Shown: piece after piece, positions 27,879 through 32,640 of the stretch
Position numbering within the stretch: the stretch's first letter is position 1
How the letters are laid out: the number at the start of each line of letters is the position of its first letter
Sequence record: OR449013
Strand: one strand, 5' to 3'
DNA from: Escherichia phage Mangalyan
Length of the DNA stretch: 64,000 nucleotides
Made by a program: the position numbers and the translations under genes
The notes under the pieces: generated by a model
The model's input: only the letters and a program-made list of their open reading frames with translations
What the model was told of the DNA's origin: nothing
Database searches by the model: none

Positions 27879-28184
27879 ATGGCTAAATCTAAAGTTGAAC
27901 TGTTCACCTCTCTTCCTTCTGACACTGCAGAGCGTGATCGCCTTCGCAAAACAATCGAAGAACTGGTAGAACTCCAACTTCAGATTAAAGATCTGAAAGA
28001 TGCCATTAAGGATATCATTCTCGTTGAGAAGCAGGATCACCTGTATTCTCCTAAATTCATCAAATCTCTGGTGGCTACCGAGTTCGATATTCGCTATGAG
28101 GCTGAAAAACGTCGAGCTAAAATCGAAGAAGAGGTTGAGCACATGTCCGAGGCAGACATTCTGTTCAAACGCTCTGTAGAATAA
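27879..28184 (+). CDS. hypothetical coiled-coil-like protein
   Basis: SD AAGGAGA; charged heptad-like sequence. Confidence 0.5.
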   Translation: MAKSKVELFTSLPSDTAERDRLRKTIEELVELQLQIKDLKDAIKDIILVEKQDHLYSPKFIKSLVATEFDIRYEAEKRRAKIEEEVEHMSEADILFKRSVE

Positions 28185-29453: not shown

Positions 29454-29574
29454 AGCACCGAGCCCACACAGGTTCCTCATGCTAAAGCATGGCCTGAAGA
29501 GGCAAACGTGTATAATTCCTGTGCATTAGAACGTATAAAACCCTGTTCACACTTTCATTCCCAGAGGAGATTTT

Positions 29575-29790
29575 ATGAAGATAGAGATATTTGGTGGAGC
29601 TGACAACACTCGTGGCCTGATTTACCTTGAATTCGATGAATCATACCTGCCAGAGGTGTTAAATATGGACTCTGTTGCTGAGGCTTTGGGAGTAAGTCCT
29701 AAAGATCTCCACTCTGGTGCTGAGATTGATGGTTGGGAGGAGACCATGAACATCGATTTCAGTGAAGTAGGGGATGAACCACTGGACTGA
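29575..29790 (+). CDS. small acidic protein, MKxK paralog family
   Basis: SD GAGGAGA; MKIEIFGG. Confidence 0.5.
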   Translation: MKIEIFGGADNTRGLIYLEFDESYLPEVLNMDSVAEALGVSPKDLHSGAEIDGWEETMNIDFSEVGDEPLD

Positions 29791-31319
29791 CACACAATTA
29801 GTTGCCCGGCTAAAGTGCTGGGAGCACCCATAACACATCTTTCAACTAAATTTTCTACCACCACAATCACTTACCTCCCACACATGACTGTTTGCTTGTT
29901 TAGTGAGCAGTCATGCCTTGACATTCTTGCCTATCCTGATAAAATTAAGTTCTTCTCTTTTCTTTTACCGAGTAATTCGGGTTTTCTGTTCTCTTCGGTT
30001 TGAAGGGGTATGGAGATACACCTGAGTGAACAGGGTGAACAACCGAACCATTGGCTATGGCATTAGCATGGCGAAGCGGACGGGTGACGAAAGAGGGGCC
30101 GGAGGACACCAGTCACTGCCATATGATATATGGGTGATAACCTGAAGAGTCTGAATAAGTGTTTAAGTACCAGTCAGAGGAAAAGGTGAATGGTAGCCGA
30201 AGGGGGAGGGGGGTTACCTGCTTCTGTAAACATGCATCTGAAATACTACTTTAGATAACCTGAACCTGCCTTTCTGACAAATATTCCCTATTAAACTTGA
30301 ATTATTTATAGAAAATACCACAACACCACTTAAGTCTTTGATTTTACACACAAATCTTACAGATATTAAACCTCTCTATTTAACATACCTGTAACATATA
30401 CTATACTCCACCTGTCTGATCAATTTCCCCAACTACATCCCCATATTTTCCCTGTCTGTACTACCCCTGCCCCGCCGGGAGTCCCGTCATATCTGGCTTT
30501 CCAGCAAATATCACACCCACAAATATCATCACCTGAAGAGGGTTTCATCCCATAATACATGCCTTACCTGAAGAGCGCTTCATACACCACATAAATTTTT
30601 TAATTGACCCCCTCCCCGCCGCCGGAGAGGTTGGCTTTTCCCACACAGACCTGGAGAGTCAGCCAGAAATATCTGAAGAGGGTCTAGTTCTGCCCTGTCA
30701 TAAGCGGTAGCGACTGGAGTGCTGCTAGGCGGACGAAATGGGAATACTTCTCATTCTTATAACAATTCTCAAATATCGAGGCAGTGAGGCAAATTAATAG
30801 GTGAGGCCGTTCACACAGTGGCACAACATTTGCAACCTATCTTGTGGGATTGAATGAGAATACCTATCATTGTGAGAACTGTTATCATTACGGGCAATTT
30901 AACATAATACCCATTATGCGCACCACTGGCGATACATACAGGGATTGATAACATGGGTTACTGTTTACGCACATAACAATTATATTTCTTACTATTTGTG
31001 TGGGATATAGTTAGCAGCCGATAGATTAGATATTAACCTGCAGACTTCTGACCGTCCAGACGTCTAAACGCCCACACACCAAGGATTATACATACACTCC
31101 TGAATGTAAACAGGGCCGCAAAAATGCTACCATACAAGCTTGTAAATTTTTCATGCAGCACTTGACAAAGAGGAGAAAAACTTGTCTGACATAATGTGAC
31201 CTAACTGACACAACATGACACTTTTACACACCTATTAGTTTACACACTGGATTGTTTACATTCCTGATTGTTCACATGCTAACCATTTACATGATTGACT
31301 GTTTACACACCGATAATCA

Positions 31320-31339
31320 GCCATGCCATTCGTTTGCAT
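31320..31339 (+). repeat. 20-nt direct repeat GCCATGCCATTCGTTTGCAT (copy 1)
   Basis: identical 20-mer recurs at 31551..31570. Confidence 0.7.
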
Positions 31340-31397
31340 GACAATAATTATACATGACAATAATCGCACTGATCATAATTAGCATGACATAATATAA

Positions 31398-31437
31398 AAG
31401 CAGGGCAACTATTAGCAGATCTATAGTTGCCTTGCTT
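31398..31437. repeat. inverted repeat, 15-nt arms around a 10-nt spacer containing AGATCT
   Basis: AAGCAGGGCAACTAT ... ATAGTTGCCTTGCTT (1 mismatch); GGCAACTAT/ATAGTTGCC recurs at ~31464 and ~31563. Confidence 0.65.
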
Positions 31438-31550
31438 GTTATGTCATGATTAACTAAATACAAGGCAACTATGATCTGATTAATAGTTTGCAGACAAACT
31501 ATCACGGGGGTGATGGTTACTGCTTTTATATTATGTCGCGACTCCGTCGC

Positions 31551-31570
31551 GCCATGCCATTCGTTTGCAT
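31551..31570 (+). repeat. 20-nt direct repeat GCCATGCCATTCGTTTGCAT (copy 2)
   Basis: identical to 31320..31339. Confidence 0.7.
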
Positions 31571-32176
31571 AGTTGCCTTATTGTTACAGATAAAATAATT
31601 GTATTGTTAATTATTTCTTATCTTTCTATTAGTCATCTAATGATTTCAGTTAATATAGTAACGTACAGTAAACATTAGACGACTAAAGATTTCTATGCTT
31701 ATGGTAACCTAACGTGACAATTCCAGACTGTTTACGAAAAATGTTGACACCTGGGCCGATTTATGTTATGCAGTTTACACGAATAATTATTTTATGCAGG
31801 TATTGACTATTCCGTTATTCTATGGTTGGAATAAATGCTTAGCAGGCTATAGAATGGCGAGCGTACGTAAATTCTGAGATCTGGCGGCTATAGTTATACT
31901 CGATTTTTCACGTAGAAAACGCTTTTGTAGTTATGTAAGTGTATGACTTATAAAGTTGACAAGCTATTGAATATATGCATCAGGTTAAATTTTGTGCAAA
32001 TGCTGCATTACGTGCAATTTTGGAAGGAAAAACGTGTAAAAATGGCCCTGCTACCACACAATGAAAAATTATGCAATAGTTATTTTATATGTATGTTTGT
32101 ACAGTGTGTGGGATTGATGGCTCGTCAATTATTCCACTTGCCAGGTAGGGCCGTTTATGGTAGGGGGAAGAGCAGA

Positions 32177-32202
32177 CAAAAAGAAAGGGGCCTAAGCCCC
32201 TT
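32177..32202 (-). terminator. rho-independent terminator closing the - strand gene block
   Basis: on - strand AAGGGGC-ttag-GCCCCTT followed by TCTTTTTGTCT. Confidence 0.55.
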
Positions 32203-32220
32203 GATAATTCAGTTAAAAAA

Positions 32221-32640
32221 TTATAATGATTCGTATATTTCAAAAATCCGATTTGCCAGGTCGTTACGGTAGCGGAATTTTTCCTCGCGTTTGATCATAA
32301 GATCTTTATAGCCGTACTCTTTAAGCACTTCATTAACTTTATGGCGGCATACTTTCATATTATCCTGCGCGTCACCAATAAATCTGTTGCTATGGTGCAT
32401 GGCTTTAATTTCTTCTTCCAGGACCAGGGCAACTATGCGGACCGGATCAAGCTGATAGGCGGTAACATCCATGCGGCATTGTAGACGGCTTTTAACGTCT
32501 GCCACCGGATATACTGCAACCTCTTCCCCGTCAACATTGACAATAATTAGTTTACCATCGATTTCGAATCCTTTCGCCGCCGGACCGTGACAAAAAGCGT
32601 TATCAAAGCTATATGCCGGATTATTAGATTTAATGTTCAT
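32221..32640 (-). CDS. hypothetical protein
   Basis: 139-aa ORF; SD AAGAGGT before ATG. Confidence 0.5.
   Translation of the reverse strand: MNIKSNNPAYSFDNAFCHGPAAKGFEIDGKLIIVNVDGEEVAVYPVADVKSRLQCRMDVTAYQLDPVRIVALVLEEEIKAMHHSNRFIGDAQDNMKVCRHKVNEVLKEYGYKDLMIKREEKFRYRNDLANRIFEIYESL

Follow-up and report, generated by a model that had tools for sequence, protein, structure and literature searches.

The stretch of DNA analysed here (64,000 nt of Escherichia phage Mangalyan, sequence record OR449013; the whole stretch is called the window) belongs to an rV5-like phage of the genus Vequintavirus. Positions 29791–32220 form a 2.4-kb region without recognisable genes, in which a plus-strand gene block terminating at 29790 faces a minus-strand block terminating at 32221. 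A total of 121 phage records, all from rV5-like Escherichia coli myoviruses of this genus, cover the full length of the region at approximately 85–97% identity. In the rV5 paper the locus was drawn as a grey 'non-coding' box without open reading frames (ORFs) (Kropinski 2013, Fig. 2 legend), and the change in GC skew at this place was put down to the switch in transcription direction (Kropinski 2013). A later annotation guide (PMC8785237) cites rV5 for 'wastelands' lacking apparent genes. The rV5 promoter table, for which only DNA 5′ of genes was scanned, has no entry between P162 and P164. The majority of GenBank records leave the region unannotated, and the rest carry differing short 'hypothetical proteins'. 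The features considered in this study were as follows:

29791–32220, no strand assigned: ORF-free region between the converging gene blocks, equal to the rV5 'non-coding' box between ORF163 and ORF164.
29883–29915, plus strand: hairpin (CATGACTG, 17 nt, CAGTCATG) directly 5′ of the −35 hexamer.
29918–29945, plus strand: sigma-70 promoter TTGACA-16-TAAAAT, preceded at its −10 hexamer by TG (extended −10); 11 of 12 consensus positions match in addition to the TG.
29948–30215, plus strand: candidate structured non-coding RNA gene of ~265 nt, recognised by conservation, fold and covariation.
30216–30727, plus strand: spacer from the RNA gene to the terminal repeat, with an AT-rich stretch followed by C-rich, G-poor DNA.
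30728–31186, no strand assigned: 459-bp direct terminal repeat, located by the record ends of relatives and present as a single copy in the window.
31187–31320, plus strand: hypervariable TGTTYAC(A) iteron array with a unit of ~16 nt, directly right of the repeat, as seen in the alignment.
31320–31570, no strand assigned: dispensable cassette between exact 20-nt repeats GCCATGCCATTCGTTTGCAT (31320–31339 and 31551–31570), found by repeat search and by alignment with phage FV3.
31571–32184, no strand assigned: conserved AT-rich segment (84–97% identity, 15 genomes).
32185–32202, minus strand: intrinsic terminator closing the minus-strand gene block, equal to t164 of rV5 (terminator scan; rV5 Table S4).
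32221–32640, minus strand: 139-amino-acid (aa) homologue of ORF164 adjoining the genome end, with no Pfam match.

The terminator ending the minus-strand block is also annotated in the records of Alma, Murica and EdH4.

The original prediction for this DNA held that the region has no ORF with a ribosome-binding site and that the plus and minus gene blocks converge on it, and both statements were borne out. Conservation was profiled in an alignment of 15 diverse Vequintavirus genomes (the window and 14 others). None of the 20 ORFs of at least 30 aa in the region combines a Shine-Dalgarno sequence with conservation outside the near-invariant block described below, and most are interrupted across the 14 other genomes. 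These 20 ORFs had zero matches in Pfam and PHROGs, and no tRNA or tmRNA was detected. Short 'hypothetical proteins' are annotated here in JLBYU08 (7), MiataMamis (14) and PMBT16 (13), as would be expected if annotation pipelines had generally overlooked small protein-coding genes. Such concealed genes are highly improbable on the evidence above; moreover, the annotated ORFs vary between records, and inside the invariant block the two RNA clades introduced below differ by insertions and deletions (indels) and have no reading frame in common.

Conservation is concentrated in a 338-nt block at 29878–30215, which is 99.5–100% conserved among the 15 genomes. At least 80% of the block is covered by 117 records, and identity is at least 98.2% in the full-length matches among those listed, which exceeds the 85–97% of the region overall. 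Divergent relatives of the block were searched for because near-identical sequences cannot reveal covariation. Starting from the flanking 139-aa protein, we reached an IMG/VR contig (L024) in which the block is only ~75% identical, and pattern scans of IMG/VR and metagenomes yielded nine copies, mutually up to ~15% different, from an uncultivated sister clade (clade B, as opposed to clade A of the window). Four IMG/VR pattern scans and one metagenome scan gave clades A and B only and no third RNA clade; 40 other metagenome matches were chance matches to the 18-nt pattern.

The promoter is retained in both clades. A clade-A variant (L030) preserves the hexamers and the TG around a differing 18-nt spacer, and clade B carries TTGCAA-17-TGcTATAAT at the same position. 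The hairpin directly upstream is likewise kept in position in clade B with another sequence (ATACCTAC..GTAGGTAT), and probably forms the 3′ hairpin or terminator of the plus-strand operon that precedes it. Downstream of the promoter, the putative RNA would begin at ~29950 and end at ~30213–30220. Its 5′ CU-rich and 3′ G-rich ends would pair with each other and close a multi-helix fold, of which the following elements were placed on the window:

~29952–29963 with 30200–30213, plus strand: helix P1, a 5′ CU tract with a 3′ G tract, one of the best-supported helices; its register is ambiguous.
29984–29995 with 30004–30015, plus strand: helix P3, among the best-supported helices.
30113–30137, plus strand: a further hairpin.
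30150–30154 with 30174–30178, plus strand: helix P8, closing the invariant GUUUAAGUACCAG loop and also among the best-supported helices.

The fold was conserved between the two clades. A covariance model built on clade B alone (R1) detected every clade-A copy with 44–55 bits (E ~1e-13 to 1e-16), and found no match in the Phapecoctavirus, Seunavirus and Mydovirus loci. In the merged alignment of both clades, 93.3% of the cells pair compared with 43–48% when the partners were slid by 1–3 columns, and 26 pairs change on both sides compared with 1–7 in the slid controls. The covariation score was 0.269 (0.04–0.10 slid, 0.127 shuffled), a value reached by none of 500 shuffles. G-U pairs make up 21% of the paired cells, which indicates that the fold is specific to the plus strand; folding of the plus strand relative to shuffled sequence gave z = −2.29, and that of the minus strand z = −0.58. 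A MAFFT alignment made from sequence alone also brought out P1 and P3, the latter with four compensatory pairs, and P3 and P8 were predicted independently in each clade. Within clade B, the helix closing the GUUUAAGUACCAG loop exchanges G-C for A-U at two pairs and shows compatible one-sided changes at two further pairs. An extra hairpin holding CCUGAAGAG occurs in three of the nine clade-B copies and at that place in none of the others; such optional insertion of a hairpin is typical of structured RNAs.

Several points weigh against this reading of the block. The covariation is drawn from just two clades, effectively two lineages, and changes inherited by many sequences are counted repeatedly. 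The merged alignment (A3) was fitted to the model's own structure. Helices P2, P4–P7 and P9 are weakly supported in clade A, and P1 has an ambiguous register, both of its strands being of low complexity. No Vequintavirus transcriptome turned up in the literature searched. In addition, the reverse complement of the TGTTCAC iteron beside the terminal repeat, GTGAACA, is found twice, at a distance of 10 nt, in the longest stretch conserved between the RNA clades (GAGTGAACAGnGTGAACA, 30026–30041), so that some of the conservation could operate at the DNA level.

This last point bears on a different explanation, in which the near-invariant block is a DNA-level cis element, such as the 'pac' region of a terminase or a protein-binding platform, and the RNA structure is a by-product. 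The block lies ~500–800 bp 5′ of the left boundary of the repeat, its two iteron motifs (30026 and 30035) stand 10 bp apart, and nearly every nucleotide is conserved, loops included, which exceeds the typical needs of an RNA. A DNA element of this kind is nevertheless unlikely: changes on both sides preserve the helices between the clades, and the other strand, or a cruciform, would have A-C mismatches in place of the G-U pairs, with pairing falling from 93% to 72%. Both clades retain the full consensus promoter in register despite its diverging spacer, and one hairpin is an optional insertion.

A structured RNA encoded by the block thus has its own promoter, no conserved ORF and helices kept on one strand by compensatory changes, all at the level of sequence, and we consider its existence very probable. 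We regard 29918–30215 as a candidate for a highly conserved, previously undescribed structured RNA gene with its own host-type promoter, from which we infer transcription; host RNA polymerase would transcribe it once the DNA enters the cell. No family of Rfam release 15 (4227 families) reached its gathering score anywhere in the window, a result that covers whatever hammerhead, 6S, packaging RNA or group I intron models this release includes. At E values up to 10, the region, the block and a clade-B copy gave chance-level matches only, and those in the block and the clade-B copy had E values of at least 0.56 and scores far below the family cut-offs. As a candidate for a new phage RNA family the RNA is well supported, with members in Vequintavirus and one uncultivated sister clade.

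Several other interpretations of the block were tried and rejected. Host mimicry found no support in a blastn search of 5,426 E. coli genomes, which returned no match to the block. The motif CTGAAGAG fits the CUGANGA of hammerhead ribozymes; at 30142, however, the closing pair of stem II would be G-G (by eye), the CU of the motif sits in another helix, six of the nine clade-B copies are without the motif, and no Rfam family matched. A CsrA sponge was not indicated, with ~5–7 GGA motifs in the RNA (by eye) compared with ~8 expected from composition. A hand-drawn P6 and outer P8 showed no pairing at the drawn coordinates in the window when checked, and are not claimed.

On its plus strand, the spacer that separates the RNA gene from the terminal repeat is strongly enriched in C and poor in G (GC skew −0.35 to −0.76), with C-rich tracts at 30463–30477 and 30607–30621, and its AT-rich stretch at 30250–30450 has a GC content of 26–33%. 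Transcripts of the RNA would end here through Rho action or processing, the composition suggesting a Rho loading zone; terminase recognition is another conceivable role. The spacer contains ACCTGAAGAG boxes at 30531, 30566 and 30671, as well as AAATATC. The interval 30450–30548, including CAAATATC and CCTGAAGAGGGYTTCA, is one of few islands conserved with clade B, and another begins at the left boundary of the repeat; these shared islands would fit recognition sites for end formation. Two stretches of the spacer, 30216–30290 and 30683–30710, are variable and indel-rich among the 15 genomes, the latter immediately before the repeat. In the former, directly 3′ of the RNA gene, the window departs from the 14 other aligned vequintaviruses, which agree among themselves, and this stretch looks like a replaced or recombinant patch.

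The terminal repeat was located by the ends of database records. Terminal redundancies of 458 bp were reported for EdH4 and HdK5 (Korf 2019), and these map to 30728–31186. In the EdH4 record the first nucleotide corresponds to 30728 and the last to 31186, and the 459 bp at one end are identical to the 459 bp at the other. Records starting at 30728 are those of EdH4, HdK5, YN3, ECP2309 and the four Hungarian phages bov10K2, bov22_2, bov11CS3 and bov25_3, the Hungarian ones in their revised versions. ECP2303 ends at 31186, and EcoIv14a_Aya begins at 31186 in reverse orientation. Overall, ~10 records from at least five groups begin or end at these same two nucleotides, and eight records hold two copies of the repeat. 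The same sequence thus stands at both ends, as in a direct terminal repeat of the T7 type, in the records of relatives rather than in virion DNA of this phage. The repeat is also a conserved island (91–99%) flanked on both sides by hypervariable DNA, and its edges match abrupt switches to indel-rich DNA within ~5–20 bp. This coincidence of boundaries and conservation gives independent, sequence-only support for the genome ends. Fixed ends with a 459-bp repeat are likely, and the virion DNA likely has its physical left and right termini at the two boundaries of the repeat.

Published packaging statements for vequintaviruses conflict, with a 458-bp terminal redundancy on one side and circularly permuted or headful genomes on the other. 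Headful (pac) packaging with permuted ends would make the 459-bp repeat an artefact of assembly or PhageTerm, with at most a pac site at this place. In its favour, and against fixed ends, rV5 was described as circularly permuted (Kropinski 2013), and two PhageTerm reports name vequintaviruses 'circular permutated' (Svab 2021) or headful (BpE1AUH 2026). The rV5 statement rests on 3.6-fold Sanger coverage without end mapping (Kropinski 2013), and in a later revision (version 2) the Svab records begin at 30728. The exact end nucleotides shared between groups, the records with both copies and the sharp conservation changes at both boundaries also speak for fixed ends, as does the exact terminal repeat of 328 bp that a related genus has at the syntenic place. 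Permuted ends are accordingly improbable.

The related genus is Phapecoctavirus, which belongs to a different subfamily and in which the flanking 139-aa protein is ~89% identical. In phAPEC8 a gene-free gap of ~1.5 kb lies beside the 139-aa gene, and the 328-bp repeat is found in the corresponding gap of Mt1B1_P17. A Phapecoctavirus homologue of the region itself was rejected: the gap DNA is unrelated and has no match to model R1. The conserved 101-aa gene likewise failed to lead to a syntenic region in Seunavirus or Mydovirus, where synteny is lost and no gap adjoins that gene. The 139-aa ORF164 homologue is annotated 'DNA translocase' or 'Rel homology domain' in various records.

Under fixed ends, the single copy of the repeat would be the junction between genomes in replicating concatemers. 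The terminase would cut at both repeat boundaries, and the repeat would be duplicated during packaging as in the T7-type model. Likely recognition or handling sites would be the ACCTGAAGAG and AAATATC boxes to the left of the repeat and the TGTTYAC arrays to its right.

The region as a whole is a mosaic. Among the 15 genomes, 30741–31190 is 91–99% conserved; 31191–31390 is the most variable part, with 62–81% identity and up to 19% gaps; and 31391–32190 reaches 84–97% identity, mostly higher than the neighbouring gene (83–88%). The region is a composite of separate modules with very different conservation, not a single repeat system. Nineteen records titled 'Campylobacter phage' (within GenBank MG065635–MG065690) also match the region at 83–94% identity; the single entry inspected, MG065654 (C15), carries the mark UNVERIFIED and is assigned to Vequintavirus FFH2, and these names look like mislabelling or contamination.

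The short repeats are best considered against this background. The window has 29 copies of TGTTYAC, of which 11 fall in 29544–31735 (~15-fold over local expectation), including a four-copy direct-repeat family with starts at 31223, 31239, 31255 and 31286 (spacing 16, 16 and 31 nt). The iteron array directly right of the repeat has a mean identity of 62–67% and 13–19% gaps, and its copy number and spacing differ in nearly every genome. A DNA-binding protein shared by the iterons and the GTGAACA motifs of the RNA gene could connect the two modules; more speculatively, the RNA could pair with the iterons, since the invariant GUGAACA-GUGAACA segment is complementary to the TGTTYAC iterons beside the repeat, and this might allow the RNA to recognise them. 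A candidate binder of the repeat motifs is a 101-aa protein encoded at 27879–28184 on the plus strand. Its annotation reads 'transcriptional regulator' or 'double-stranded DNA-binding protein'. Conservation is 100% in most vequintaviruses, identity in other Vequintavirinae genera is 42–58%, and the protein has no Pfam match.

The cassette to the right of the array contains CATGACAATAAT boxes, four AAGGCAACTAT boxes including the palindrome at 31398–31437, an 18-nt perfect inverted repeat (31386–31403 and 31520–31537) and, on the plus strand, a terminator-like hairpin at 31497–31518 followed by a T-rich run. AAGGCAACTAT has eight matches in the window compared with 1.65 expected, four of them in this region. 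Phage FV3 is without the 231-bp segment between the 20-nt repeats together with one repeat copy (window 31318–31550), which indicates that the cassette, with its palindromes and inverted repeats, is dispensable; FV3 probably lost it by recombination between the 20-nt repeats. In the conserved AT-rich segment beyond the cassette, TGTTTAC occurs at 31668 (minus strand) and 31729 (plus strand), together with TTGACA-type hexamers, and the DNA at 31550–31700 has a GC content of 25–29%. The 11-mer TGTGGGATTGA has exactly two copies in the window, one in the terminal repeat (30843–30853) and one near the minus-strand terminator (32107–32117); a third site at 30999 has two mismatches, and the first copy is conserved in clade B. 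GATC was not enriched in the region (5 sites by eye, ~9.5 expected).

The individual repeats of the original prediction were all found again, although their treatment as one system was not sustained by the 15-genome alignment. The TGTTTACA-like iterons described there are present, exact TGTTTACA by itself being weakly enriched window-wide (7 found, 3.5 expected). Four plus-strand copies of CTGAAGAG, described as lying beside C-rich tracts, are real: they cluster within 540 nt (30142, 30533, 30568 and 30673), and three of them share ACCTGAAGAG. In the window CTGAAGAG has 13 copies compared with 2.1 expected, and those outside the region lie within coding sequence. The 20-nt duplication at 31320 and 31551 is exact, and the 15-nt inverted repeat around AGATCT has arms at 31398–31412 and 31423–31437, its arm AAGGCAACTAT recurring at 31462 and 31569. 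The near-invariant block, the terminal repeat and the 18-nt perfect inverted repeat had been missed.

A replication origin may share the region, to judge from the iterons, the AT-rich DNA and the sister clade's DnaA boxes. In the strongest form of this idea, the region would be mainly an iteron-type origin: a phage or host initiator would bind TGTTYAC, 31550–31700 would melt, the promoter at 29918 would give a priming or activating transcript as at T7, T4 oriF and ColE1, and the terminal repeat would be incidental. Iteron origins have three or more similar direct repeats at regular spacing, and four are present here; TGTTYAC has 11 copies within 2.2 kb, and AT-rich DNA that could unwind adjoins the array at 31550–31700 and is also found at 30250–30450. 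The transcribed block is G-rich (GC skew ~+0.3) with the 3′ end GGGGGAGGGGGG, which would favour an RNA–DNA hybrid, and the phage encodes a family A polymerase together with a primase-helicase resembling that of T7 (Kropinski 2013). In the sister clade, the homologous region of four contigs has three tandem perfect DnaA boxes TTATCCACA each (L024 6845–6884, minus strand; L028 11959–11998, plus strand; L029 1004–1043, minus strand; L066 660–699, minus strand), and a fifth has two (L035 6430–6457, minus strand). These boxes are spaced by 12 and 19 bp, lie in non-coding DNA ~1.5–1.7 kb 3′ of the RNA gene, and are inserted, with respect to the window, at 30945/30946, within the segment that is homologous to the repeat; none is found there in Vequintavirus.

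Other observations speak against an origin as the main function. The DnaA box TTATCCACA is absent from 29791–32220, where the relaxed consensus matches at 30342 and 31222 alone and is not enriched. No initiator gene was recognised beside the region, the flanking small proteins having no Pfam match. The iteron array is the least conserved part, shifting in copy number and spacing in nearly every genome, and the GC-skew switch tracks gene orientation, as the rV5 authors noted. A region devoted mainly to replication initiation is possible but doubtful, and an origin is more plausibly a co-tenant.

Taken together, we favour, with some reserve, the reading of 29791–32220 as the genome-end control region of an rV5-like myovirus, a composite in which a putative RNA gene, the terminal repeat and a possible origin lie side by side. 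The absence of the cassette interval 31320–31550 from FV3 counts against this reading to the extent that this part is not essential. Of the functions that the original prediction had offered (an origin, a packaging site, a cluster of protein-binding sites or non-coding RNAs), the packaging site or terminus agrees with the 459-bp repeat of close relatives. Non-coding RNA is supported by covariation at 29918–30215, where only one CTGAAGAG copy had been seen. The origin has the iterons, AT-rich DNA and sister-clade DnaA boxes for it, and the lack of a DnaA-box cluster in the window and of an evident initiator gene against it. By analogy, the RNA might act on the neighbouring genome end, as a packaging cofactor like the phi29 packaging RNA (pRNA) or as a primer or activator of a terminal origin like ColE1 RNA II or T4 oriF; we hold this to be quite a long shot. 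Either role, if true, would be the first for such an RNA in a large myovirus of Gram-negative bacteria.

Phages of the rV5 type are isolated widely, and they find use in cocktails for therapy and biocontrol, as members of O157 typing sets and within the BASEL collection. A 2.4-kb 'wasteland' that stayed unexplained for more than a decade now poses testable questions on the role of the RNA and on how replication, end formation and packaging share one region. The map shows annotators where vequintavirus genomes ought to start, and it shows phage engineers that the 'empty' region is unsafe as a DNA insertion site.

The region itself and the terminal redundancy were already known, and the candidate RNA family and the modular map of the genome end are new. 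The 'non-coding' box of rV5 and the redundancy of EdH4 and HdK5 concern the same locus, between ORF163 and ORF164 with the terminal redundancy inside; the two papers (Kropinski 2013; Korf 2019) neither connect both facts nor describe the promoter, the RNA block, the iteron arrays or the variability of the arrays. The resemblances to phi29, to transcript-primed origins and to T7 are analogies, with no claim of membership.

Iteron origins with DnaA boxes include those of P1 (oriR), F, pSC101 and RK2, and transcript-primed origins include ColE1 RNA II, T4 oriF and the T7 primary origin. The region resembles them in its direct repeats of 16–22 bp, the adjoining AT-rich DNA and the promoter with a G-rich transcript, DnaA boxes being present in the sister clade only. 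It differs from them in having no identified initiator gene, no DnaA boxes in the window, hypervariable iterons and modules spread over ~2 kb and interleaved with the genome ends. As in the phi29 pRNA system, a small structured RNA with paired 5′ and 3′ ends would be encoded beside a genome end under an early host-polymerase promoter, an analogy only; unlike that system, the RNA matches no family of Rfam release 15, and rV5 has an ordinary large terminase. The concatemer junction of T7 reportedly consists of a short terminal repeat amid short-repeat arrays, with the phiOR promoter directed toward the right end. In the region, likewise, a short direct terminal repeat has arrays of repeats on either side, and a promoter that lies a few hundred bp 5′ is aimed at the right end. 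It differs from the T7 junction in that the promoter is of the host sigma-70 type, because rV5 has no phage RNA polymerase, and in that a conserved, putatively structured RNA lies 3′ of the promoter in a myovirus of 137 kb.

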